A DNA stretch of 17,848 bases from Patescibacteria group bacterium (GCA_041650895.1 JBAZKF010000002.1:152425-170272), one strand, 5' to 3'. Shown: positions 3 through 17,848, counted from the first letter of the stretch. Notes: generated from the sequence alone by a model not told the origin. Program-made: numbers and translations.

Positions 3-755
3 CTGGATCAGGGCAAGAAGTTTTTGGATTTGCTGAAAAAATTCGAAGTTGAGGAATTTCGGTTAATTGAGGATGATCCGATGCCGGAAGGCCAATATGA
101 CGTTTGTTTGGTTGAAGGCAATCCGGTGACCAAGGAGAATATCAAACTGCTTAAGGCCATGCGCGAACGTTCCAAATTTTTAATCGTTTTGGGTAACTGC
201 GCGGCGCTGGGCGGCGTTTGGGAAATTAAGAATTATCAGGATAAGAAAAAAACCATCAGGTATGTCTATCAGAACTCCGCCAAAGTGGAGAATCCTGATA
301 TCAAAGAAGTGGATAATTTTGTTGAAGTGGATTTGACTATTCCCGGCTGTCCCGTAACCGGTAGCGAGATGTTGGAGATGATTTATCAGCTTTTGTCCGG
401 CAAAATGCCGCGTCTTCCGCAAAGCCCGGTGTGTTGGGAATGCCAGACTAAGGGCTATGAATGCTTGTTGCAAAAAGGTATGATTTGTCTGGGGCCGATT
501 ACTTTGGGCGGCTGTCAGGCGGTTTGCCTGAAAAGCAAACAGCCGTGCTGGGGCTGTCGTGGGCTGTTTGAGGGCGCGCAAGTCAAGAATCATTTTAATT
601 ATTTGACGGCCAATTTCCCTCGTCAACAAGCTTATCGCGTGATGGAAGTTTTTGGCGTTCGCGACTCAATCTTAAAGTCATTGGTTAAAGGAAACAAAAC
701 AACTAAAGGATTAAGGAATAAAAAGGGAGGAATAAAGATAAATAAGAAAAAATAA
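3..755 (+). CDS. [NiFe]-hydrogenase small (electron-transfer) subunit, cytosolic group-3 type (delta-like); 5'-partial at window edge
   Basis: The frame is open from nt 3, so the N-terminal proximal-cluster CxxC region must lie upstream of the window (first in-frame ATG at 24). Small-subunit motifs are present: LVEGNP...LGNCAALGG, GCPVTGSEM, and a C-terminal Cys cluster CWEC...C...C...GGCQAVC...CWGC typical of the extra [4Fe-4S] clusters. It sits directly upstream of the large-subunit gene. The C-terminal tail is unusually Lys-rich (KGNKTTKGLRNKKGGIKINKKK). Confidence 0.75.
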   Translation: MDQGKKFLDLLKKFEVEEFRLIEDDPMPEGQYDVCLVEGNPVTKENIKLLKAMRERSKFLIVLGNCAALGGVWEIKNYQDKKKTIRYVYQNSAKVENPDIKEVDNFVEVDLTIPGCPVTGSEMLEMIYQLLSGKMPRLPQSPVCWECQTKGYECLLQKGMICLGPITLGGCQAVCLKSKQPCWGCRGLFEGAQVKNHFNYLTANFPRQQAYRVMEVFGVRDSILKSLVKGNKTTKGLRNKKGGIKINKKK

Positions 756-1024: not shown

Positions 1025-2323
1025 ATGCAAATAAAAGTCAATCACATCGGCAAAATGGAGGGGCACTCCGATTTTGTGGCCGAAATCATTAAGGGCAAAG
1101 TGTCTTCGGCTAAGGTAATGACTACCGAAGGCGCGCGTTTGATCGAGGGCATTTTGGTCGGCCGGAATTTTGATGAAGCGCCGATTATTACCGCCCGCAT
1201 CTGCGGTATCTGTCCGGTGGTGCATAAGATTTCTTCGGTCAAGTCATTGGAGAATGCCTTAAATATCAAGCCGAGCGAGCAGACAATCAAATTGAGAAAA
1301 GCCATGCTGTGCGCTCAACTGATCCACAGCCACGCTTTGCATTTGTTTTTTTTGTCTTTGCCGGACTTTTTTGACATCACTAATGATTTACAGTTCATCG
1401 GCCAATATAAAAAAGAAACCGAGAGCGCTATTCGAGTGCGCGATTGGGCGCTGAAGACAATTGAAGTCATCGGTGGCAGAGCGGTGCATCCTATCGCCTG
1501 CGAAGTCGGCGGATTCAAGGTTTTGCCGGAAAAGTCCGAGTTGGCTGAGTTGGCCGGCCGTTATCAGTCAGTCCTAAAAGACGCCTTGGTTCTGGTTAAT
1601 ATGGCGCTGAAAATCAATTTGCCCAGATTCAGCCGTCCCACAACTTTTGTGGCCTTAACTCAGGGTGATGAATATGCCTATTATGGTGGCGACTTGAAGG
1701 TGTTATATCCCGGTGGCAAGACTAAGACGATCAAAGCCAAGGATTTTACTAAGAATATTAAGGAGATTGAGGAACCGTATCGCGCCGCTAAGTCGGCCAA
1801 GCTGGACGGCAAACCGTTTATGGTTGGCGCTTTGGCGCGGATAAACATTAATCATGACAAATTAAATCCTTTGGCAGCTGGAATATTCAAGAGTTTAAAG
1901 TGGCGCTTGCCCCAGTACAACACTTTTAATAATATTATTTGCCAGGCAGTAGAGATAGTCCATTTTACGGAAGAATTAGACCGCTTGCTGGAGGAGCTGT
2001 CGACAGAGTTAAAGCCGGAAGCAAGCCGAGGTCAAGAGCTTAGTCTTATTGCCCGCGCCAATCCGTTGAGTCGAGTCACTGCCGGCGTTGACGCTTGCGA
2101 GGCGCCGCGTGGGACGCTGTATCATTCTTACAAATTAGATAAAAACGGATTGATTACCGATTGCCAGATCATTACTCCGACCGTGTCTTTCTTGAAAAAT
2201 TTGGAGGCGGACATCAAGCAATATTTGCCGGGAATAAAAGATATGCCGGAGAAAAAGCGCGCCATTAGGATTCGCGCCCTGATTCGCGCCTATGATCCGT
2301 GCATTGCCTGCGCCACTCATTAA
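1025..2323 (+). CDS. [NiFe]-hydrogenase large (catalytic) subunit
   Basis: N-terminal L1 motif RICGICPVVH (RxCGxCxxxH) and C-terminal L2 motif DPCIACATH (DPCxxCxxH) are both present. At 432 aa the length fits cytosolic group-3 enzymes. The protein stops immediately after the L2 histidine. Confidence 0.9.
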   Translation: MQIKVNHIGKMEGHSDFVAEIIKGKVSSAKVMTTEGARLIEGILVGRNFDEAPIITARICGICPVVHKISSVKSLENALNIKPSEQTIKLRKAMLCAQLIHSHALHLFFLSLPDFFDITNDLQFIGQYKKETESAIRVRDWALKTIEVIGGRAVHPIACEVGGFKVLPEKSELAELAGRYQSVLKDALVLVNMALKINLPRFSRPTTFVALTQGDEYAYYGGDLKVLYPGGKTKTIKAKDFTKNIKEIEEPYRAAKSAKLDGKPFMVGALARININHDKLNPLAAGIFKSLKWRLPQYNTFNNIICQAVEIVHFTEELDRLLEELSTELKPEASRGQELSLIARANPLSRVTAGVDACEAPRGTLYHSYKLDKNGLITDCQIITPTVSFLKNLEADIKQYLPGIKDMPEKKRAIRIRALIRAYDPCIACATH

Positions 2324-2364: not shown

Positions 2365-2619
2365 ATGCATGATTTTCATTTGGCTGACACGATCTATAAA
2401 GCGATTATCCAGGAAGCCGAAAAAAACAATTTAAAAAAAATCACCAAAGCGGTGATTGAGCTGGGGAGTATTGTGGAACATGGCGAGGAGGTTTTGCCGG
2501 CTAATTTGGATTTTAACATAAAGATGTTAGCAGAGGGAGGGAAAGCGGACGGCTTAAATATTGAAATTGGTAGGTCGTCGGGTAATGAGTGGGTACTTAA
2601 GGAGATCGAAGGGGAGTAA
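2365..2619 (+). CDS. hypA: HypA-like hydrogenase Ni-insertion metallochaperone, truncated variant without the Zn-finger domain
   Basis: Starts with MHD, compared with the canonical HypA N-terminal Ni-binding MHE. The helix-rich N-domain ...KITKAVIELGSI... resembles HypA. The C-terminus GNEWVLKEIEGE aligns to the E. coli HypA C-terminus GDSLIVKSIEVE. It is only 84 aa and has no cysteines, so the CxxC...CxxC Zn module is absent. Confidence 0.5.
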   Translation: MHDFHLADTIYKAIIQEAEKNNLKKITKAVIELGSIVEHGEEVLPANLDFNIKMLAEGGKADGLNIEIGRSSGNEWVLKEIEGE

Positions 2620-2654
2620 TTTTGTTAAATAAAAAACCGCCGTGTATATGTAAA

Positions 2655-2692
2655 TTTTCAACACTTCACACAGCTGTGTGAAGTGTTGAAAA
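2655..2692. repeat. 38-bp perfect palindrome TTTTCAACACTTCACACAG|CTGTGTGAAGTGTTGAAAA (19-bp arms, no spacer), likely an operator or strong hairpin between the hydrogenase module and pgk
   Basis: Read directly: the left arm 2655-2673 is the exact reverse complement of 2674-2692. It contains TTCACA/TGTGAA half-sites. Its right arm overlaps the putative pgk -35. Confidence 0.9.
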
Positions 2693-2714
2693 CAGCTAAA
2701 ATTACAAATATAAA
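2686..2714 (+). promoter_or_regulatory. putative sigma70-type promoter for pgk (TTGAAA-17-TATAAA), near-leaderless
   Basis: TTGAAA at 2686-2691, a 17-nt spacer, TATAAA at 2709-2714. The pgk ATG at 2726 is about 5 nt from the predicted start site, and no SD is present. Confidence 0.45.
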
Positions 2715-2725
2715 TAGTTTCAGTT

Positions 2726-3904
2726 ATGAAGATAAAATCAATCCGACAAGCAAATAGTCTCAAAGGAAAAAAGGTGCTCATGCGCGCTGATTTTAATGTG
2801 CCTATAACTAAAAATGGCAAAGTTGGACAAAGCGAGGATTTCCGTATTGTCCGAACTGCGCCGACTATCCAGTATTTAATTAAAAAAGGCGCCAAGATAA
2901 TCATTATGGCGCACCTGGGCCGACCGGAAGGAAAAGTTAACCTTAAATATAGTCTGAAGCCGGTGGCCAAAAGATTGTCGCAAATAATCAAGCAGCCGGT
3001 CAAATTGTCGCCGGAAATAATCGGCGTTAAGACTGATAAATTAATCAGTCAGATGAAAAACGGCGAAGTACTATTGTTAGAAAATATCAGGTTTGATAAG
3101 CGCGAGGAACAAGCGAATAATAATTTTGCCCGGGAGCTGGCGAGTTTGGGCGATCTTTATGTTAATGACGGTTTTGCCGTTTCTCATCGTGACCAGGTAT
3201 CGGTTTCTGTTATTCAAGATTTTCTGCCGTCTTATGCGGGATTATTGTTGGAAGATGAAATAAAGTATTTGGGCGGTGTTTTGAAAAATCCTAAGAAGCC
3301 GCTAGTGGTGATTATTGGTGGCGCCAAGATTTCCACTAAGATCAGGGTAATCAAGAATTTTGCCAAGGTGGCGAAGCGGATTTTACTGGGTGGCGCGTTG
3401 GCCAATACGGTGCTGAAAGTTATGGGCGTGTCGGTGGGTAAATCGCCGATTGAGCCGGAAATGTTCGGCGAGGTTAAGAAATTCAAATTGACTGATAATA
3501 ATATTGTAGTGCCGGTTGACGGCGTGATGGCCAATAATTTTAACGCCAAGAAGGGGAGGATGGATGCCTTAGCCGATATTAAGCCGGAAGAATTGATTCT
3601 GGATATCGGACCGGATACTGTAAAACTATATGAAAATATCTTAAAATCGGCTAAAATGGTTATGTGGAATGGGCCGATGGGTTTAATAGAAAACCCGGTC
3701 TTTGCCCGGGGCACTAGGAGCTTGATCAGGATTTTGGCTGGTTCCAAGGCCCAAACCATTGTCGGGGGTGGAGAAACGGTGCAAATGATTCGTAAAATGA
3801 AATTAGAAAATAAATTCAGTTTTATTTCGACCGGCGGGGGAGCGATGTTGGAGTTTTTGGAAGGCAAGAAATTGCCGGGACTTAAAAAATTAGTCAGCAG
3901 ATAA
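2726..3904 (+). CDS. pgk: phosphoglycerate kinase
   Basis: 392 aa with the typical PGK N-terminus (KKVLMRADFNVP, AHLGRP) and a full-length match to the PGK fold. Glycolytic context. Confidence 0.95.
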   Translation: MKIKSIRQANSLKGKKVLMRADFNVPITKNGKVGQSEDFRIVRTAPTIQYLIKKGAKIIIMAHLGRPEGKVNLKYSLKPVAKRLSQIIKQPVKLSPEIIGVKTDKLISQMKNGEVLLLENIRFDKREEQANNNFARELASLGDLYVNDGFAVSHRDQVSVSVIQDFLPSYAGLLLEDEIKYLGGVLKNPKKPLVVIIGGAKISTKIRVIKNFAKVAKRILLGGALANTVLKVMGVSVGKSPIEPEMFGEVKKFKLTDNNIVVPVDGVMANNFNAKKGRMDALADIKPEELILDIGPDTVKLYENILKSAKMVMWNGPMGLIENPVFARGTRSLIRILAGSKAQTIVGGGETVQMIRKMKLENKFSFISTGGGAMLEFLEGKKLPGLKKLVSR

Positions 3905-6188: not shown

Positions 6189-7766
6189 ATGCCTGTAAAA
6201 TCTAAAAAATCACAAAAAACAGAAATCGCTAAAAAAGTTCTTTTGCTCATATTAGACGGTTGGGGAATCGGCAAAGAAGACGGTTCCAATCCGATTTTTT
6301 TAGCTAAACCGAAGTTTATCAATTCTTTGTATAAGAAGTATCCCTGGACGGAATTATGCGCGTCCGGACTTTGCGTCGGTTTGCCGCCAGACCAGGTGGG
6401 AAACTCTGAAGCCGGCCACATGAACTTGGGAGCCGGACGCATTGCCGATCAGGACGTGATTAAGATTTCCAAACACATCGGTACTGGCGAATTTTTCAAG
6501 AACCCCGCTTTTTTGGCGGCTATTAATCACGCCAAAAAGAATAAAACCGCTTTGCATTTGATGGGTATGCTGTCTAACGGCCAGAGTCCCCACAGCGATC
6601 CTGATCATCTTTTGGCTTTACTGACCTTAGTGCGCAAGCATGAGTTAAAAAAAGTTTATTTGCATTTATTTACCGATGGTCGCGATTCACCGCCTATGTC
6701 GGCCTTGAAATCCATCATGGCTTTGGAGCGTTCGCTTAAACCCAATGAGATCATCTCTACGGTTATCGGTCGGTTTTACGCCATGGATCGCAAGAAAGTC
6801 TGGACCAGGACTATCGCGGCTTACAACGCCATGACCGACGGCCGGGATGCGCATTATGCTGACAGTCCTCAGGCCGGCATCGACCGCGCTTACAATGCTA
6901 ATATATCCGATGAATTCATCGAGCCTATTGTCATTAGGCAAAAAGGAAAAATGACGCCGCGTATCAGCGATAATGACGCCATTATTTTCTTTAATTTGCG
7001 CAGCGATCGCGCCAGGCAAATGGCCAAGCCGTTTGTCCAGCATCAATTTGAAGAAAAGAATCCAGGGTTTGTTAAGCGTAAACGAGTATTGCGTAATGTT
7101 TCCTTTGTGGCTATGACTGATTTCGGACCGGATTTGGATAGTATTCTGACCGCTTATCCTTCGGAAGATTTAAAAAACACCTTGCCTATAGTGTTGAAGA
7201 ACAAGAAGCAGATTTATATCGCCGAGAGCGAGAAATACGCTCATGTGACTTTCTTTTTTAATGGTGGTTATGCTGATCCGGTGGGCGGTGAAGAAAGAAT
7301 TAATATTCCTTCGCCTCATGTGGATAGATACGACAAGACGCCGGCTATGTCCACCAAAGGAATAACCAGCAGAATTATTGCTTCATTAAGAAAATACGAT
7401 TTTATCTGCGCCAACATCGCTTGTCCTGATATGATCGGCCACACCGGCAATATGGAAGCGGCGCAAGAAACAGTTAAGGCTGTTGATAAATACGTCAAGC
7501 AAATCGTGGCGGCCGCGCTTAAGAATGATGCCGTGTTGCTCATCACTGCCGATCATGGCAATATAGAATACAAACTCAATTTGGAAACAGGGGAGAGGTT
7601 GACCGAACATACCACTAACCCAGTGCCATTTATTGTTGTAGGTGGCAGTTTCGGCAAGTCGCTAAAATTAAAGCGCGATGGCGTTTTGGGTGATGTCGCC
7701 CCTACTGTTATTAAACTGTTCGGTTTAAATAAACCCAAGGGAATGAGTAAGAATAGCTTGATTTAA
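6189..7766 (+). CDS. gpmI: 2,3-bisphosphoglycerate-independent phosphoglycerate mutase (iPGM), paralog 1 (more diverged)
   Basis: LILDGWG, GNSEAGHMNLGAG (active-site Ser retained), DGRD, GRFYAMDR, FNLRSDRAR, EKYAHVTFFFNGG, DMIGHTGN and ITADHGN motifs. The GGVHSH region is altered to GQSPHS. Confidence 0.9.
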   Translation: MPVKSKKSQKTEIAKKVLLLILDGWGIGKEDGSNPIFLAKPKFINSLYKKYPWTELCASGLCVGLPPDQVGNSEAGHMNLGAGRIADQDVIKISKHIGTGEFFKNPAFLAAINHAKKNKTALHLMGMLSNGQSPHSDPDHLLALLTLVRKHELKKVYLHLFTDGRDSPPMSALKSIMALERSLKPNEIISTVIGRFYAMDRKKVWTRTIAAYNAMTDGRDAHYADSPQAGIDRAYNANISDEFIEPIVIRQKGKMTPRISDNDAIIFFNLRSDRARQMAKPFVQHQFEEKNPGFVKRKRVLRNVSFVAMTDFGPDLDSILTAYPSEDLKNTLPIVLKNKKQIYIAESEKYAHVTFFFNGGYADPVGGEERINIPSPHVDRYDKTPAMSTKGITSRIIASLRKYDFICANIACPDMIGHTGNMEAAQETVKAVDKYVKQIVAAALKNDAVLLITADHGNIEYKLNLETGERLTEHTTNPVPFIVVGGSFGKSLKLKRDGVLGDVAPTVIKLFGLNKPKGMSKNSLI

Positions 7767-7769
7767 ATT

Positions 7770-9362
7770 ATGACTGATAGCAAAAACAAACGACTTAAAC
7801 CGGTAATACTGATGATTTTGGATGGTTGGGGAGCGGCCCCGCCTTCAAGATCCAATGCCATTACTCTGGCCAAAACGCCGGGGGTGACAGGATTAATAAA
7901 AACTTATCCGGCTTTGACTTTACAGGCCTCGGGCGAAGCCGTGGGCTTGTCTTGGGGGGAAATTGGCAACTCTGAAGTCGGGCATCTTAATTTGGGCTCG
8001 GGCAAGCTGGTTTACCAGAATTTGCCGCGCATTAATAAATCCATTTCTGACGGCGCCTTTTTTGAGAATGAAAAGTTTATCAATGCCATAAAACACGCTA
8101 AGAAAAACAAAGGCAAAGTTCATTTGCTGGGGTTGATTTCTTCGGGCGGCGTGCACAGCCATATTGATCATTTATTCGCTTTGTTGGAGCTGTGTCAGAA
8201 AGAAAAATTCCGCGAGGTATATATTCATGGCGTTTTGGACGGCCGTGACATGCCCTATAATTCCGGCATTGATTTTGTGGAAAAAATAAAAAACAAATCC
8301 GAGGAATTGGGTGTCGGCCGCATTGCCACTCTGTCCGGCCGGTTTTATGCTATGGATCGCGACAATCATTGGGAGCGCATCGTTCTGGCTTATAACGCCA
8401 TGGTCAAAGGTGAAGCCACGGAAAGATTCAGTGATCCGAGCGAGGCGGTCAGCGCTTCTTACGATAAAAAGATCTATGATGAGGAATTTGTGCCGGTAGT
8501 GATCGAAGATGGCGGCCGGCCTGTGGCCACCATCGCCCCCGGCGATGCCGTGATATTTTTTAATTTTCGCGCGGATCGCGCTCGAGAGATTTCCAAAGCG
8601 TTCGTTTTGCCCGGTTTTGAAAAGTTTGAACGGCAATATTTGAAAGATTTATATTTCGTGGCTATGACCGAATACGAGAAGGATGTCCCGATGGAAGTCG
8701 CTTTTCCTCCTGAAACCATTAAAGATCCGTTGGCTAAGGTTATAGCCGATGCCGGCCTAACTCAATTGCATATCGCGGAGACGGAGAAATACGCCCACGT
8801 CACTTTTTTCTTTAATGGCGGTACCGAGCAGGAATTTACCGGTGAAGACAGGGTGTTGGTGCCGTCGCCACGCGTGTCTTCTTATGCGGAGAAGCCGGAA
8901 ATGTCAGCCAAGGAAGTGACGCAGAAAACCATCGACGCTATTATGGCTGATAAGTATGATTTTATTGTGTTGAATTTTGCCAATTGTGATATGGTCGGCC
9001 ATACTGGAGACTTAAAAGCCACAATCAAAGCCGTGGAAGCAGTGGACAGTTGCGTCAAAAAAATCACAGAAGTGGTTTTGGCCAAAGGCGGAGCGGCCTT
9101 AATTACCGCTGATCATGGCAATGCCGAGGAGTTGCTCAATTTACAATCAGGCGAAATAGACAAGGAACACAGCACTTATCCGGTACCGCTTATTATCGTC
9201 GGCAAGGAATGGGAGGGTAAGAACGCCGGTTTTCCGGAAGTGCCTGGCGGTGATCTATCTTTGGTTCAGCCGGCTGGCATACTGTCCGATGTGGCACCGA
9301 CGATTATCAAGATTATGGGGCTCGAACAGCCGGCGGAAATGACCGGTAAACCGTTGATTTAA
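7770..9362 (+). CDS. gpmI: 2,3-bisphosphoglycerate-independent phosphoglycerate mutase (iPGM), paralog 2 (canonical)
   Basis: ILDGWG, GNSEVGHLNLGSG, SSGGVHSHIDHL, DGRD, GRFYAMDRD, FNFRADRARE, EKYAHVTFFFNGG, DMVGHTGD and ITADHGN. Starts 3 nt after paralog 1. Confidence 0.9.
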   Translation: MTDSKNKRLKPVILMILDGWGAAPPSRSNAITLAKTPGVTGLIKTYPALTLQASGEAVGLSWGEIGNSEVGHLNLGSGKLVYQNLPRINKSISDGAFFENEKFINAIKHAKKNKGKVHLLGLISSGGVHSHIDHLFALLELCQKEKFREVYIHGVLDGRDMPYNSGIDFVEKIKNKSEELGVGRIATLSGRFYAMDRDNHWERIVLAYNAMVKGEATERFSDPSEAVSASYDKKIYDEEFVPVVIEDGGRPVATIAPGDAVIFFNFRADRAREISKAFVLPGFEKFERQYLKDLYFVAMTEYEKDVPMEVAFPPETIKDPLAKVIADAGLTQLHIAETEKYAHVTFFFNGGTEQEFTGEDRVLVPSPRVSSYAEKPEMSAKEVTQKTIDAIMADKYDFIVLNFANCDMVGHTGDLKATIKAVEAVDSCVKKITEVVLAKGGAALITADHGNAEELLNLQSGEIDKEHSTYPVPLIIVGKEWEGKNAGFPEVPGGDLSLVQPAGILSDVAPTIIKIMGLEQPAEMTGKPLI

Positions 9363-13168: not shown

Positions 13169-13197
13169 TTGACAAAATATTTAAGGTGTGATATAAT
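13169..13197 (+). promoter_or_regulatory. near-consensus sigma70 promoter with extended -10 (TTGACA-17-TGaTATAAT)
   Basis: TTGACA at 13169-13174, a 17-nt spacer, TGATATAAT at 13189-13197. Predicted start site about 13204. It drives the GC-rich island. Confidence 0.65.
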
Positions 13198-13203
13198 AGT
13201 TTA

Positions 13204-13870
13204 TTCAAGATAGTGGTTGTGGATAACTGAACAAAATTCAATTATTGACAATATTATCTTGTGGCAGCTTAAAAGCTGTTTTAAGAGAACCTTCGGGTTC
13301 TTTGTCAGGGCGTCAGGCGGCTTATGTCGTGTGTCGCCCTTGACAAAGGTTCCGAATAATGGAACTCTGAATGTTAATTAAAAAAATATTCGCGGCAGCT
13401 TGTCGCCGCGTCGATATGATTAAGGCGTATGCTTGTCCGCCTAAATCCGATCCAAGGTCTAAAGCCGAGGATCTTAGGAGGAGATTAAGCTGAAGAGGGG
13501 GCCTGGCTTGAAATTATATATTCGCCAATCGCCTTAATTCACTTCTTCAAGTCTTGATTATATCGATGCGGTAGCAATGTCTGGCCGTCTAAGCAGGCGG
13601 GCAAACGCGCGCTGCAAGTACTTTCGAAGGAAGATTTTCCCCACCGCGTCGGGCTTTTATCCCGCCGGATCGGTAGACCTCCTCCTTTCCCCGGGGAGGC
13701 GTTATGTAGCGATACATGCGCCTCCCCCACACGCCTCAGACAGTATGGTTCGAGAGCATATAATCAAATCCTCACAAAGGAAGCTTGGTTTTACGCTTAC
13801 GGCCGGGGTACTGTTTGAGGCGTGTGTTGCAAAAAAGCATTTTTCATTTTACGTTACGAGTAATCTCGTG
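13204..13870 (+). ncRNA. candidate large structured non-coding RNA / structured 5' leader (class unknown), GC-rich
   Basis: No ORF with a plausible translation start. Many GC-rich helices are readable directly: GAACC-UUCG-GGUUC (UUCG tetraloop); CTTTGTCAGGGCG...CGCCCTTGACAAAG long-range helix; CGCGGC...GCCGCG; GGGGAGGCG-[AUGUA-GCGA-UACAU]-CGCCUCCCC (nested GNRA hairpin); CACACGCCTCA...TGAGGCGTGTG (an 11-bp helix enclosing about 65 nt). By eye the GC content is roughly 55-60%, against about 40-45% in the flanking genes. Confidence 0.4.
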
Positions 13871-13880
13871 AAGGAGGCCT

Positions 13881-14078
13881 ATGATAGTACAATGTTGCGT
13901 TTGTCGTAGGGTGCGTTTGTCTGGCGTGTCTGGCGTCTCTTGGGCGGAGCAAGCCATACCACCCGGTGAGGATGTTTCCCATGGCTACTGCCCGGAATGC
14001 GCCGCAAAAGCGTATGAGGGCATGGAGAGGGAATTGACCAACCGGCACCAAAGGAGCCCGACTGATGGCAAAGGGTAA
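13881..14078 (+). CDS. small 4-Cys zinc-ribbon protein (65 aa), paralog 1
   Basis: AAGGAGG sits 3-4 nt upstream of the ATG. Pattern CxxC-x12-W-x15-YCPEC-x4-AY. Low-complexity repeats occur in the N-terminal part, which lowers confidence. Confidence 0.45.
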   Translation: MIVQCCVCRRVRLSGVSGVSWAEQAIPPGEDVSHGYCPECAAKAYEGMERELTNRHQRSPTDGKG

Positions 14079-14253
14079 GTGCCCGGCTTGTTTTAAAATC
14101 GAAGTGGCGCCGGGGCAGTGGAAAAACACCGCCTTACCGGTCAAAGAAGAAACATTGCCCAAATACTGTCCGAGATGTAGCGAGCATAACGCTTATGTCC
14201 GGGAGAGCATTCGGGTATCCAAGGAGTTGGCGGGCGGCGCGTCGGGAAAATAG
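14065..14253 (+). CDS. small 4-Cys zinc-ribbon protein (62 aa), paralog 2, translationally coupled to paralog 1
   Basis: AAGGAG sits 8 nt upstream of the ATG. The start overlaps the end of paralog 1 (ATGGCAAAGGGTAA). Pattern CPAC-x9-W-x15-YCPRC-x4-AY has the same W-to-YCPxC spacing as paralog 1. Confidence 0.5.
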   Translation: MAKGKCPACFKIEVAPGQWKNTALPVKEETLPKYCPRCSEHNAYVRESIRVSKELAGGASGK

Positions 14254-14265
14254 AACATTCTGTTA

Positions 14266-14303
14266 GGAGGAAGCCGCGCGGCTTCCTCCTTTAAAATTGA
14301 TTT
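14266..14303 (+). terminator. strong GC-rich Rho-independent terminator ending the GC-rich island
   Basis: AGGAGGAAGCCGC|GCGGCTTCCTCCT is a perfect 13-nt inverted repeat (14266-14291), followed by TTTAAAATTGATTTTGATTT. Confidence 0.65.
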
Positions 14304-14412: not shown

Positions 14413-14450
14413 TCCTAAAAATTTTTTTAGGATCACACTCAAGTGTGATT
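14413..14450. repeat. two adjacent hairpins: AT-palindrome TCCTAAAAA-TT-TTTTTAGGA and ATCACAC-TCAA-GTGTGAT
   Basis: Read directly from the sequence. A GC terminator follows. Confidence 0.6.
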
Positions 14451-14556: not shown

Positions 14557-14934
14557 ATGTCACTCAAACAACTAATTATCATCGTCAGTATCGCCACTCT
14601 ACTTTGCTGGGCCAGTTGGTTGCTAGTTATCTTTGAAGTGGATCCGACAACCGCCGGCTTTTACGGCCTACTGATTTTTTATGCCAGCATGTTTTTGTCT
14701 TTGCTTGGTTTGTTTTTCCTGATCAGTTTCGGCTTTCGCAAATTATTCAATAAGCTGGAAATGGAATACAAGCTGGTGGGCATGTCTTTCCGCCAATCAT
14801 TTTTCTTCTCCTTGGCCGTCGTGGGATTCTTTTTCCTGCAGAGCAAGGATTTATTGACTTGGTGGAACAGCATTTTGCTGGTTTTGGCTCTGGTGATTTT
14901 GGAATTTTTCTTTTTGAGTTATCGGAAGAAATAG
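14557..14934 (+). CDS. small integral membrane protein (125 aa, about 4 TM helices), unknown function
   Basis: Four hydrophobic segments. Bracketed by its own promoter and a strong terminator. No recognisable motif. I checked for CrcB-like sequence and found none. Confidence 0.55.
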   Translation: MSLKQLIIIVSIATLLCWASWLLVIFEVDPTTAGFYGLLIFYASMFLSLLGLFFLISFGFRKLFNKLEMEYKLVGMSFRQSFFFSLAVVGFFFLQSKDLLTWWNSILLVLALVILEFFFLSYRKK

Positions 14935-14975: not shown

Positions 14976-15025
14976 TATTTTTTTCTCCTTTAGGAAGAAG
15001 AAGATTAAGAGGGGCTTATTTTCAT

Positions 15026-15094
15026 GATACTTTTCTCTAGAGAAAAGTATCACCAAAGAGTCGCGAGCGAATAAAATCATGGCTAGATTTTTTA
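15026..15094. repeat. repeated intergenic element, copy 1: 26-bp perfect palindrome GATACTTTTCTC-TA-GAGAAAAGTATC + AGTCGCGA + hairpin AAAATC-ATGGCTA-GATTTT
   Basis: Palindrome at 15026-15051 (centre TCTAGA). AGTCGCGA at 15059-15066. Hairpin at 15073-15091. The element aligns over about 60 nt with 16542-16606. Confidence 0.7.
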
Positions 15095-15118
15095 CTCCGC
15101 AATATTTTTAATAGCCAT

Positions 15119-15157: not shown

Positions 15158-16216
15158 ATGAAAGAAAAACTCAGCCAATTAAAGGCGCAATTCACCGAGG
15201 AATCGGCAAAGGTCAAATCAGCTTCCGAGCTGGAAGAATTGGAGAATAGATTTTTGAGCCGTAAAAGTGGATTGCTGACCGGCATCATGAAGGGGATCAA
15301 AGATGTGGCTAAAGAAGAGGTGGCGGAAATCGGCGCCTTGGCTAATGAAACCAAAGATTATATTGTTGAGGGACTGGAAACACTTAAGGGAAACTTGGGC
15401 GGTATCGGTTCCTCTAATTTCGATTTTACCGTACCCGGCCGCAAGCCGGCTGTCGGCCATTTGCATTTAGCCACCATTGCCATTCGCGAGATTGAAAGTA
15501 TCCTAGAGCCGTTAGGCTTCGTCAGGACGCGCCATCCGGATGTAGAATGGGATTATTATGCTTTTGAAACTTTGAACATGCCCGGCGATCATCCGGCTCG
15601 CGATGACTGGGAAACCTTTTTTATTGATGATTCTCCGATCAAGATGAATTTGCCGGCTAATTCAAAGAAATTAGTCAAAGAGGGGAGACGATTACTAACT
15701 CCTCATACTTCTAGCATTCAGGTACGGGAAATGGAGAGGGGCGTTCTGCCGATTCGGATGATGAATATTTCCAAATGCTATCGTCGGCAGATTGATGTTT
15801 CTCATGTGCCGATGTTCCATCAATTTGAGGGGCTAGTGATTGACAAGGGGATTAATATTACTCACTTGAAGGGCACGATTGATTATTTTGTTAAGAAATT
15901 TTTCGGCGAGGATCGCACAATTCGTTTGCGGCCGCATCATTTTCAATTCACTGAGCCGAGTTTTGAAGTGGATATTTCCTGCGGACTCTGCCATGGCGCA
16001 GGTTGCAAGATGTGTAAAGAGGGTTGGTTGGAGCTGGCTGGCGCCGGCATGGTTCATCCAAATGTGCTTAAAGCCGGCGGCATTGATCCGGAGAAGTATT
16101 CGGGTTTTGCTTTCGGCTGGGGTGTCGAGCGATGCTATTCCATGAAGTCGGACCTGAATATTGATGATTTAAGGTTGATGTATAAGAATGATTTGAGGTT
16201 TAATGAGCAGTTTTAG
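15158..16216 (+). CDS. pheS: phenylalanine--tRNA ligase alpha subunit
   Basis: Class II aaRS motifs: PHHFQFTEPSFEVD, the Cys cluster ISCGLCHGAGCKMCKEGW (as in Bacillus PheS), GWLELAGAGMVHPNVL, SGFAFGWGVERCYSM, DLRLMYKNDLRF. No pheT follows within the window. Confidence 0.95.
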   Translation: MKEKLSQLKAQFTEESAKVKSASELEELENRFLSRKSGLLTGIMKGIKDVAKEEVAEIGALANETKDYIVEGLETLKGNLGGIGSSNFDFTVPGRKPAVGHLHLATIAIREIESILEPLGFVRTRHPDVEWDYYAFETLNMPGDHPARDDWETFFIDDSPIKMNLPANSKKLVKEGRRLLTPHTSSIQVREMERGVLPIRMMNISKCYRRQIDVSHVPMFHQFEGLVIDKGINITHLKGTIDYFVKKFFGEDRTIRLRPHHFQFTEPSFEVDISCGLCHGAGCKMCKEGWLELAGAGMVHPNVLKAGGIDPEKYSGFAFGWGVERCYSMKSDLNIDDLRLMYKNDLRFNEQF

Positions 16217-16230
16217 AGATTATATATTAT

Positions 16231-16533
16231 ATGACAGAATATAAGTTAGAAGCAGAATCTGCAAGATTTGATTTAAAAGGTAATCCCGTCGATCTCTCTA
16301 CTATTAGAGGTGAGGTGACAATTAACTTCTTTTTCGTTGTATATAATATTTTTTTTACATTATTAATTGCTATTATTGGTGTTATACCGATACATTTGCT
16401 GTGTTGGCAATTGAAAATATTATTATTTATTATTGTGTTAATTGGGTTATTTTTTTGTTTTCGTATAGTATATTTTAGGAAATTTTTAACAAAAATAAGA
16501 TCTACTATATTTAGTTTTAAAGAGAGGTTGTAA
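16231..16533 (+). CDS. hypothetical small membrane protein (100 aa), AT-rich
   Basis: Two to three hydrophobic helices. Strongly AT-rich codon usage, unlike the upstream genes. Confidence 0.4.
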   Translation: MTEYKLEAESARFDLKGNPVDLSTIRGEVTINFFFVVYNIFFTLLIAIIGVIPIHLLCWQLKILLFIIVLIGLFFCFRIVYFRKFLTKIRSTIFSFKERL

Positions 16534-16541
16534 TCATTTTA

Positions 16542-16606
16542 GTATTACTTTTCTAGAAAAGTAATACAAAAGTCGCGACCGGAAAAAATCATGGCTGGAT
16601 TTTACG
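16542..16606. repeat. repeated intergenic element, copy 2: 26-bp perfect palindrome GTATTACTTTTCTAGAAAAGTAATAC + AGTCGCGA + hairpin AAAATC-ATGGCTG-GATTTT
   Basis: Palindrome at 16542-16567, AGTCGCGA at 16571-16578, hairpin at 16585-16603. A further TTTTCTAG lies at 16647-16654 inside the inverted repeat TTGCAG...CTGCAA. Confidence 0.7.
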
Positions 16607-16706
16607 CTCCACTCCTGAAAATTTCCTGACGCTTCGCTTGCAGAAATTTTCTAGTCGTTCCTGCAAAAAATCGCACAATATTTTTTAATGGTCGCAATAG
16701 CAATGT

Positions 16707-17219
16707 ATGCCAAATATAAAACCTAAATCACAAATAGAAGTTGATCAGAATATCTTAGATTTTTTAAATGGAATGCACATTGATAAGCCCGAAGATTTGG
16801 TAACCTTAAAGAATAAGATAATTAAATCCCTTGAATTCCGATCATATAATAATAAAACAAAAAAGCATGCTGATAGTATCCAATGGAAAAGAACTGCTTC
16901 TGAGATCTTGTCAGATGGTTATGTTTATAAAGGAAAGGCGTGCTCTGATTTGGCGGTAGTTTTCCTTGCTCTATGTAAGGCAACCGGGATTAATGGCCGC
17001 TTGGTTAAATTAAAATCAATAGATAACGAACATACTCACTCGATTGTTGAGGTTAAATTAAAGAGGGCTTGGTATAGAATTGATCCATCAAGTAGAGATT
17101 CCTTGCCATTTAAAGGTGAGTTATCAAGTAAATCAATTTGGAATAAAAAGTTTAAAGTTTGGCGGAAAGGAAAAGATGTCTGGGATTTAGGCCTTAAAGA
17201 TATAAAATCAGAATTATGA
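16707..17219 (+). CDS. transglutaminase-like cysteine-protease superfamily protein
   Basis: Candidate catalytic triad in the canonical order and spacing: GKACSDLAVVFLALCKATGI (Cys), HTHSIVEV (His), WYRIDPS (Asp). Confidence 0.65.
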   Translation: MPNIKPKSQIEVDQNILDFLNGMHIDKPEDLVTLKNKIIKSLEFRSYNNKTKKHADSIQWKRTASEILSDGYVYKGKACSDLAVVFLALCKATGINGRLVKLKSIDNEHTHSIVEVKLKRAWYRIDPSSRDSLPFKGELSSKSIWNKKFKVWRKGKDVWDLGLKDIKSEL

Positions 17220-17641
17220 TAAATAAAATTTGGAAAAAAATTTATAATATTTTCACAAATGTACCAGTCTATCTAAAATTGGCAATTATTCCGATTTTAT
17301 TTTACTTAATTTTATTTGTATCTTTTGTCCTATTGTCTCTTATAGGATTTATAGCACAAAGGTTTGAAATTTTTGGAGCTTTTCTTAGTATTATAGCGCT
17401 TCCCATAATTATAATTATGTTTGTTTTCGAATTCTTTACTCTACTTACTGTTAGTATTTTATCACTATTTATTCCGAACAATATTATAAAAGAAATGACT
17501 ACTCCAGCTATTTTTGGCGGTGATATTTCGAATAACTTTGGTGTTTTTGCGTCATTAGTATTTTGGGTTATTATTGGATTTTTTGTCGGCTTAATAATAT
17601 TTTTTAAAAAGCGTTATTTTAATAATAATAAAATTAATTAA
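17216..17641 (+). CDS. hypothetical integral membrane protein (141 aa), AT-rich
   Basis: Start overlaps the previous stop (ATGA). Three to four TM helices. Very AT-rich. Confidence 0.5.
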   Translation: MINKIWKKIYNIFTNVPVYLKLAIIPILFYLILFVSFVLLSLIGFIAQRFEIFGAFLSIIALPIIIIMFVFEFFTLLTVSILSLFIPNNIIKEMTTPAIFGGDISNNFGVFASLVFWVIIGFFVGLIIFFKKRYFNNNKIN

Positions 17642-17706
17642 CTATTATATTATTAATGATTTATGAACCTAAATATCTCTTACAACTGGCTAAAGTCGCT
17701 CGCCCG

Positions 17707-17834
17707 TTGTCATTCCGACCGGAGCGAAGCGTAGTGGAGGAATCCCTTTTGACAGTAAAAACCCATTAAAATAGTTTATTTAGAGTTAAAAGCGATCCCT
17801 CCACTCGGCCTTGAGGCCTCGGTCGGGATGACAA
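17707..17834. repeat. GC-rich 130-nt imperfect inverted repeat / long hairpin with internal GGCC-TTGA-GGCC mini-hairpin and about 45-nt AT-rich apical region
   Basis: TTGTCATTCCGACCG (17707-17721) pairs with CGGTCGGGATGACAA (17820-17834). AGTGGAGGAATCCC (17733-17746) pairs with GCGATCCCTCCACT (17792-17805). The interior contains TTGACA-17-TAGTTT. Confidence 0.6.
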
Positions 17835-17848
17835 AATGGTTTAATGAC

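Follow-up and report, generated by a model that had tools for sequence, protein, structure and literature searches.

A perfect palindrome upstream of pgk in a Patescibacteria bacterium: a plausible REP-like hairpin at a deletion scar

The hypA-pgk spacer and its palindrome

The window, by which we mean the whole 17,848-nt stretch of DNA analyzed, opens with genes for the two subunits of a NiFe hydrogenase and a HypA-like ORF that closes the hydrogenase block (Table 1). An ORF of 84–89 a.a is conserved at the hypA-like position in relatives. A spacer of 106 nt separates this ORF from pgk and contains the palindrome, which begins 35 nt beyond the HypA-like stop codon. On the 3′ side of pgk, all on the plus strand, lie a SIMPL-domain gene, eno, two tandem iPGM genes, an HlyD/ABC/FtsX transporter, and later pheS. 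The tandem cofactor-independent phosphoglycerate mutase paralogues (525 and 530 a.a; nt. 6189–9362) are also found in two of the relatives compared below (L002 and L006). These Pfam-identified neighbors place the palindrome between the hydrogenase and the glycolytic gene sets, as a previous sequence-only reading of this DNA had it. NCBI assigns the Pgk to a Patescibacteria MAG and several of the next-closest proteins to Candidatus Buchananbacteria. A further contig (L001), a 2.1-kb duplicate of the locus, begins inside the palindrome.

Table 1. Features of the hypA-pgk region (window coordinates) and sites of the related hairpins.
Feature	Position	Strand	Remarks
NiFe hydrogenase small subunit	24–755	+	Pfam
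NiFe hydrogenase large subunit	1025–2323	+	Pfam
HypA-like ORF, 84 a.a, last of hydrogenase block	2365–2619	+	26.9 bits (Pfam cut-off 28.9)
Terminator relic AAAAAACCGCCG	2631–2642		A-tract and left arm of the relatives' GC-rich post-hypA terminator; loop and right arm gone
Spacer TGTATATGTAAA	2643–2654		Resembles, by inspection, TATATAAAG (L038) and GTATAAGG (L004) just past the terminator
Perfect spacer-less 19+19 palindrome	2655–2692		As RNA, 16–17-bp stem with AGCU loop
Family core ACTTCACAC-AGCT-GTGTGAAGT	2663–2684		Flanks TCAAC/GTTGA; matches other Patescibacteria hairpins
TTCACA	2665–2670		Inside palindrome
CAGCTG	2671–2676		Palindrome center
TGTGAA	2677–2682		Inside palindrome
TTGAAA	2686–2691	+	−35-like hexamer; outer end of right arm
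TAAAAT	2697–2702	+	Homologous to relatives' pgk −10/leader box G[C/G]TAAAAT
TATAAA	2709–2714	+	−10-like; ends 11 nt before pgk ATG; leader would be 4–5 nt
pgk	2726–3904	+	PF00162, 447 bits; ATG 33 nt past palindrome
Related hairpin, L009	12 nt past ligA stop		U-rich tail, then separate canonical terminator and next gene's promoter
Related hairpin, L024/L034	22–25 nt past glnA stop		U7; textbook terminator
Related hairpin, L011/L033	Fills gap from mreB stop to glycosyltransferase start		U6 nearby
Related hairpin, L022/L041	~17 nt before gyrB ATG, between divergent genes		No U-tract

The palindrome, TTTTCAACACTTCACACAG joined directly to CTGTGTGAAGTGTTGAAAA, has arms of 19+19 nt that are 100% complementary with a spacer of 0, and its symmetry stops at both ends (A at 2654, C at 2693). 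With the base composition of the window, ~8e-8 palindromes with 19-nt arms are expected per 17.8 kb, and arms in 300 windows simulated with a Markov-1 model reached at most 11 nt, which bears out the original claim of a perfect 38-bp palindrome far beyond chance. Even when three mismatches are tolerated, the window holds a single occurrence of the 24-nt core of the palindrome. The hairpin alone has a folding energy of −24.1 kcal/mol, and its 116-nt context an MFE of −28.6 kcal/mol (z = −4.7). The half-site words TTCACA and TGTGAA, and the TTGAAA in the right arm, were found where they had been reported.

This TTGAAA is 17 nt from a TATAAA (2686-N17-2709), a pair that the promoter scan left unlisted because the −10 lacks a T at position 6; as a candidate pgk −35, the hexamer is geometrically sound. 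The pheS promoter in the window has comparable geometry, with 9 nt between the −10 and the ATG; very short leaders are thus normal here. Shine-Dalgarno sequences are absent at pgk and the host genes of the window, the exception being two small ORFs at nt. 13881–14253.

Those two ORFs (nt. 13881–14078 and 14065–14253) encode small CxxC...CxxC proteins, each with an AGGAGG-type ribosome-binding site, unlike the host genes. Upstream of them are a perfect sigma70-type promoter (TTGACA-17-TATAAT, nt. 13169–13197) and a highly structured region (nt. 13200–13560; MFE −136.5 kcal/mol, z = −7.9) for which Rfam, tRNA, and tmRNA searches gave no match, and a loop-less palindromic terminator (nt. 14265–14290) closes the stretch. 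Together, nt. 13169–14290 may form an ncRNA and small-protein cassette of unknown kind, or foreign DNA. A small hairpin at nt. 14432–14449 (ATCACAC-TCAA-GTGTGAT) has a TCACAC..GTGTGA core in common with the palindrome, which is within chance expectation.

Two copies of a ~95-nt repeat (nt. 15005–15100 and 16525–16610; 81% identical over 43 ungapped nt) flank pheS and ORF 16231–16533. Both start with loop-less palindromes (nt. 15025–15052 and 16538–16571) with the core TACTTTTCT..AGAAAAGTA, followed by AGTCGCGAnCG...AAAATCATGGCTnGATTTT. Kinship of these with the palindrome at 2655–2692 was rejected, as nothing aligns beyond an A-Y-ACTT word. The last 1.6 kb of the window (nt. 16201–17848), with a transglutaminase-like gene and unknown ORFs, has a GC content of 29–31% versus a window mean of 43%.

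Rfam searches of the window at E ≤ 1 returned nothing but two chance eukaryotic matches, one of them an miRNA on the palindrome (24 bits versus a gathering score of 100), and no Rfam match was obtained at the sister hairpins described below. The window holds no tRNA or tmRNA. A phage or plasmid origin was discarded, given that the 58-nt region was unmatched in phage and plasmid collections and the core unmatched in viral contigs.

The sequence-only reading had proposed redox- or energy-dependent repression of the glycolytic genes by a Rex- or CRP-type regulator. The Rex consensus is TTGTGAA-N4-TTCACAA and that of CRP is TGTGA-N6-TCACA, while FNR recognizes a TTGAT-N4-ATCAA dyad; CRP and FNR sites are centered near −41.5 or −61.5. 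The order in the window, TTCACA-CAGCTG-TGTGAA, is everted relative to both Rex and CRP, an opposite arrangement that the earlier reading had itself pointed out. A Rex-type site (TTGTGAAN6TTCACAA, up to three mismatches) is absent from the whole window, and the palindrome center (2673.5) falls at about −36 relative to one possible transcription start and −47 relative to the other, outside the CRP/FNR positions. Operators and sites of other kinds (CodY, NrdR, LexA, parS, dif, and DnaA boxes) were also considered, and none fits in spacing or sequence.

The hypA-pgk junction in relatives

We compared the pgk neighborhoods of nine relatives (L002, L004, L006, L035, L036, L037, L038, L039, and L040). 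Six of them (L002, L004, L006, L035, L037, and L038; Pgk 77–87% identical) keep the order hydrogenase, hypA-like, pgk, have one to three small minus-strand genes between hypA-like and pgk, and have an A-tract with a GC-rich hairpin (a terminator) directly 3′ of hypA-like. The pgk promoter TTGTCAA-N16-19-TAnAAT is conserved in these six, L038 excepted. A TTGTCAA-type promoter is also present in L036 (Pgk 83%), the contig of which starts 86 nt upstream of pgk. In L039 and L040 (Pgk 76–77%), hypA-like abuts pgk with gaps of 4 and 17 nt, and the hydrogenase and pgk gene sets evidently form one operon.

The junction is a variable islet, with a different set of one to three minus-strand ORFs (51–252 a.a, no Pfam matches on record) in each relative; its coordinates are 5465–6000 in L002, 5054–6000 in L004, 4749–6000 in L006, 1930–3000 in L035, 2241–3000 in L037, and 1358–2500 in L038. 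In L036, a perfect DnaA-box word (TTATCCACA, nt. 34–42) lies within the pgk promoter spacer. L036 was also considered as a quasi-palindrome precursor (CCACAGGTGTGAA) and set aside, as its alignment is marginal (12 of 500 shuffles did as well) and palindromes of score ≥6 are absent there.

All relatives compared (Pgk 76–87% identical) are without a palindrome upstream of pgk, whatever its size, and no copy of the hairpin family described below was found within the 4–13 kb examined per relative. The closer sequences found are of the same strain only (Pgk 99–100% identical).

Traces of the relatives' arrangement survive on both sides of the palindrome. To the left, the counterparts of the relic at nt. 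2631–2642 are the terminators aaaaccgccgcggcaaaaccgaggcgg in L038 and aaagccgccgcgacaggtgccgcgacggcg in L004, with A6-CCGCCG as the part surviving at the junction. The homologous 12-nt spacer in L038 is preceded by the stop codon of a minus-strand gene, and the left edge of the deletion would be the right end of the spacer at 2643–2654. To the right, the G[C/G]TAAAAT...ATATAAA −10/leader region is kept in the window, where its alignment to L035 scores 35, a value reached by 0 of 3000 shuffles. Missing from the window relative to the relatives are the right arm of the terminator, the minus-strand genes, and the TTGTCAA box. Given relics on both sides and the missing islet, the palindrome lies exactly at a lineage-specific deletion junction.

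A family of matching hairpins

The core ACTTCACAC-N4-GTGTGAAGT (9-N4-9) was searched in one genome per GTDB species, a collection that the source genome lies outside of. The scan gave 26 loci against ~9 expected by chance (an expectation estimated from collection size), most of which are unrelated hairpins or other repeat families. Four come from Patescibacteria, namely L009 and L022 in one MAG and L011 and L024 in ADurb.Bin326. A stricter scan of metagenome contigs (the source of L034, and likewise without the source contig of the window) matched orthologues of the ADurb.Bin326 copies only. At the 16 flanking positions outside the search pattern, L022, L009, L024, and L034 are identical to the window at 10–12 and L011 at 7, while matches from outside Patescibacteria (~13 other lineages) reach at most 6; the shared flanks read TCAAY/RTTGA. 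The family consensus is TCAAYACTTCACAC-N4-GTGTGAAGTRTTGA, with a total symmetric length of 28–38 bp. By a count from the alignment, the window palindrome and the L022 hairpin are identical at 30 of 38 positions, and the eight differences comprise two compensatory pairs and four central positions. The copies are dispersed, one each 3′ of ligA and glnA, one 5′ of gyrB, and one in the gap between mreB and a glycosyltransferase gene.

L009 and L022, which share one genome, are 86% identical over 77 nt covering the hairpin and an AT-rich tail, with the loop inverted relative to the tail. Their MAG (CAZYUN01) is labelled uncultured Gammaproteobacteria. Its GyrB is 82–83% identical to the best further matches, several of which are named Patescibacteria or Buchananbacteria by NCBI, and the label is probably wrong.

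A flank CTAAAWTTA, 3–6 nt past the hairpin in the window, L024/L034, L022, and L009, was discounted as a shared element. The window copy of this flank belongs to the resident −10 region of pgk, which has homologues in relatives without the hairpin, and the word is probably a common AT-rich promoter-like sequence. An uptake-signal-like word was likewise rejected, the 7–9-mer arm occurring only inside hairpins in ~150 kb of Patescibacteria loci, bar one stray 7-mer. A 22-nt hairpin ACTTCACAC-GGGA-GTGTGAAGT, or its complement, is multi-copy in a groundwater Verrucomicrobia MAG (JACQHZ01; L008, L013, L014, L018, L021, L031, and L032), often at contig ends, and is also found with different, GC-rich flanks in rumen Bacteroidales MAGs (L010, L019, and L030). 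These GGGA-loop hairpins have no Rfam match and, by flank sequence, are unrelated to the Patescibacteria family.

The family match also bears on whether the palindrome could have arisen on the spot, with 19 nt of the ancestral pgk promoter inverted and duplicated by template switching or fold-back during the deletion. The best local alignment to the L035 pgk promoter does start at the palindrome center (2674) and pairs CTGTGTGAAGTGTTG-AAAA with CTTTGTCAAGAGTGGTAAAA, the L035 −35 box and spacer, and loop-less perfect palindromes are unusually common among the hairpins of these genomes. Against this, the right arm alone is not significant versus any relative's promoter (p = 0.1–0.96), and extending the alignment into the arm adds only ~5 score units (counted from the alignment); local duplication also leaves inexplicable the identity with the L022 hairpin, at an unrelated locus. 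The idea that the right arm is ancestral promoter and the left its inverted copy was thus dropped, the family match overriding it, and we consider such an origin highly improbable.

On the transcribed strand, 6–7 of the 8 nt following the L009, L024, and L034 hairpins are U, and L011 has a U6 run; no U-tract follows the window, L022, or L042 copies. The copies located after stop codons with U-rich tails (three sites) look like terminators.

Several comparisons concern pairing rather than sequence. Between the orthologous loci L024 and L034 (90% identical), the outer stem of the hairpin has changed at two base pairs, each time in a compensatory manner. The gyrB leaders of L022 and L042 (GyrB 83% identical) are collinear and have in common a −10 box, a 20-nt AT-rich box, and a TGTGGAAAA box; the conserved TGTGGAAAA box lies at ~2994–3002 in L022 and ~1335–1343 in L042. 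At the collinear position, L042 has the hairpin TGTCAACACATCAACC-g-GGTTGATGTGTTGAAA, which keeps the outer stem TCAACAC/GTGTTGA and has a different, fully paired inner stem, in which ATCAAC replaces the TTCACAC word. This swap of the inner stem with pairing intact suggests that pairing, and not the TTCACAC word, is maintained. Across the six same-core copies, covariation was weak, at 0.161 versus 0.116 in shuffles (30 of 500 shuffles as high), with five pairs changing on both sides, a test limited by the family core being invariant by search design; it is at most suggestive of selection on pairing in the family.

All family members are symmetric through the center, with loops of 0–2 nt, a central symmetry that is superfluous for an RNA hairpin and fits a DNA-level dyad equally. 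About one-third of hairpins with stems ≥11 bp in the surveyed Patescibacteria loci (window, L002–L042) are loop-less perfect palindromes, including obvious terminators; examples are window 14265–14290, L004 2798–2827, L034 2810–2835, and L037 2246–2267. This excess seems far above what self-complementary loops would yield by chance and looks like a property of the genomes rather than a family trait, and a mutational bias that perfects palindromes may underlie it.

The symmetry leads to the question of a dyad DNA site for a dimeric regulator (Rex/CRP-like or lineage-specific) or another protein, controlling pgk and other genes with the same motif. In its favor are the perfect or near-perfect symmetry through the center in all members, the 9+9 core identical across three lineages, the location of three copies 17–33 nt upstream of start codons (pgk, and gyrB in L022 and L042), and the overlap with a plausible −35. 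On the other hand, the half-sites are everted versus Rex and CRP in a window with no Rex-type site, arms of 14–19 nt are long for an operator, and four of the six same-core copies lie just past stop codons with U-rich tails. The compensatory changes between L024 and L034, the retention of pairing in L042 despite the change from TTCACAC to ATCAAC, and the absence of the palindrome from the pgk promoter in 8 of 8 relatives also speak against it. We therefore regard a protein-binding dyad of this kind as distinctly improbable. The Rex/CRP-type redox or energy repression first envisaged found no support, given the everted half-sites, the lack of a Rex-type site, the absence at orthologous pgk genes, and copies mostly 3′ of genes, and the palindrome is most likely not a Rex/CRP-type operator.

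Proposed history and comparison with known systems

On balance, we favor the palindrome being a copy of a small, REP-like family of dispersed hairpins, left at the junction of a lineage-specific deletion. What we observed directly are the palindrome itself, its likeness to the other hairpins, the lack of it in relatives, and the relics; how it spread, in which order events occurred, and what it may do at the RNA level we infer as follows. The ancestor would have had a hypA-pgk module with a GC-rich terminator, at least one minus-strand gene, and a TTGTCAA-type pgk promoter. Read on the minus strand, the window has the hairpin, 12 nt, the GC-hairpin relic, and T6, an order like that of L009 (stop codon, family hairpin, canonical terminator). 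Together with the stop codon that precedes the spacer in L038, this suggests that the hairpin once lay 3′ of a minus-strand gene, probably its original position and the usual place for the family. The deletion would then have removed the gene or genes together with the −35 box and one half of the former terminator, fusing the hairpin to the surviving pgk −10/leader. An equally possible route would be recombination between two copies flanking the islet.

Transcripts of the hydrogenase operon would fold a 17-bp stem-loop of about −24 kcal/mol which, having no U-tract, would do no more than pause transcription or terminate it weakly; the stem could also shield the RNA ends on either side from exonucleases. 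Expression of pgk would occur by read-through, as where hypA and pgk abut, and perhaps also from TTGAAA(2686)-N17-TATAAA(2709), with the −35 donated by the hairpin end.

Several observations count against a family reading. No more than five independent sites are known, spread over three lineages, each scanned genome having two copies with the exact core, and the identity of the core is partly guaranteed by the search pattern. Real repeat families are usually far more abundant than two copies per genome. The loci examined showed neither a transposase nor a target-site duplication, nor a pair of sites with one filled and one empty, and we infer the mobility of the family from its sequences.

Alternatively, the hairpin may have no present function and be a leftover of a minus-strand gene, whose 3′ hairpin was orphaned by the deletion and is still perfect only because that event was recent. 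Its position exactly at the deletion junction, with relics of the old terminator and promoter on either side, the missing U-tract on both strands, and the fact that relatives function with hypA and pgk fused or far apart would all agree with this, as would the finding of closer sequences in the same strain only. However, a 17-bp stem of −24 kcal/mol within a spacer that is transcribed would probably affect RNA polymerase or RNases, compensatory change maintains pairing in the sister copies, and, with the TTGTCAA −35 deleted, the hairpin end is the only good replacement. A purely vestigial hairpin thus seems rather unlikely to us.

More speculatively, Buchananbacteria-like Patescibacteria could carry an undescribed class of portable, perfect-palindrome hairpins, or a template-switching process that perfects hairpins, a broader proposal that we put forward only tentatively and think doubtful. 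Such hairpins would spread between sites and genomes with neither a REP tag nor a visible transposase, and would be co-opted as 3′-UTR or terminator hairpins, leader hairpins (gyrB), or −35 donors (pgk). A hairpin template-switching process would explain why about one-third of the long hairpins are loop-less. Our literature search on such repeats in Patescibacteria found nothing specific.

Should the dispersed-hairpin reading hold, the palindrome would be uninformative on redox control of glycolysis in this organism. It would instead show a reduced CPR genome reshuffling an operon boundary, where a small-gene islet is lost and a portable hairpin replaces the −35 of a promoter. Though modest, the addition of a dispersed palindromic repeat to what is known of Patescibacteria would be useful, as such repeats mark recombination hot spots, break assemblies (as in L001), and mimic operators in motif searches.

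The closest known counterparts are the REP/BIME elements of Proteobacteria, described as intergenic palindromic repeats of 20–40 bp, typically located between stop codon and terminator or between co-directional genes, whose RNA stem-loops can stabilize or terminate transcripts (PMC3733652, PMC2817692). REPs are further defined by a GTAG or CGTC tetranucleotide at one end (PMC3733652). Likeness lies in an extragenic palindrome at five independent, unrelated intergenic sites in three lineages, and in the classic layout shown by L009, where the stop codon is followed by the hairpin and then by a separate canonical terminator. The present family differs in lacking a GTAG/CGTC tag beside the palindrome (the flanks are (A/T)TTCAAY, and only L011 reads CGTCAAT). 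Counting exact cores only, each of two scanned GTDB genomes has two copies versus >100 for typical REPs, and no RAYT (Y1 transposase) was seen in the window or the 8-kb loci. Its perfect stems, loops of 0–2 nt, and reduced-genome Patescibacterium host are further differences.

With intrinsic terminators, the family shares a stable stem-loop shortly after a stop codon, to which L009, L024, and L034 add 6–7 U in 8 nt. In contrast, the nucleotides that come after the window copy are CAGCUAAAAUUA (plus strand) and UUUACAUAUACA (minus strand), with no U-tract; the first 8 nt on the plus strand hold one T, the minus strand reads TTTACATA, and the terminator scan did not list the palindrome. The T and A runs of the palindrome are part of the stem, and their order is opposite to that of a bidirectional terminator. 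The canonical terminators of the window, each a GC-rich stem with a T-run behind it, are located 3′ of eno, the FtsX gene, and ORF 14557–14934 and look different, so we conclude from sequence that the window copy is not a canonical intrinsic terminator. The suggestion that it terminates or insulates the hydrogenase operon fares better for the sister copies, those with U-tracts looking like terminators, than for this one, which has none; with hypA directly joined to pgk in two relatives (L039 and L040), insulation is not a conserved need.

The TTCACA and TGTGAA dyad near the promoter of a glycolytic gene adjoining a hydrogenase operon resembles Rex, CRP, or FNR sites, but the half-site order is inverted, orthologous promoters lack the dyad, sister copies are found in 3′ UTRs, and the family sequence is not conserved where the structure is. 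As in hybrid promoters formed at IS ends, the outer end of the palindrome places TTGAAA 17 nt from a resident TATAAA where the native TTGTCAA −35 was lost, although here there is no transposase and no IS. A general role of the hairpin end as a portable −35 was rejected, as by inspection only 2 of ~12 end/flank combinations have a good −10 partner, about the chance rate. Compared with MITEs, the whole element is an inverted repeat, and no consistent target-site duplication is visible in the flanks.
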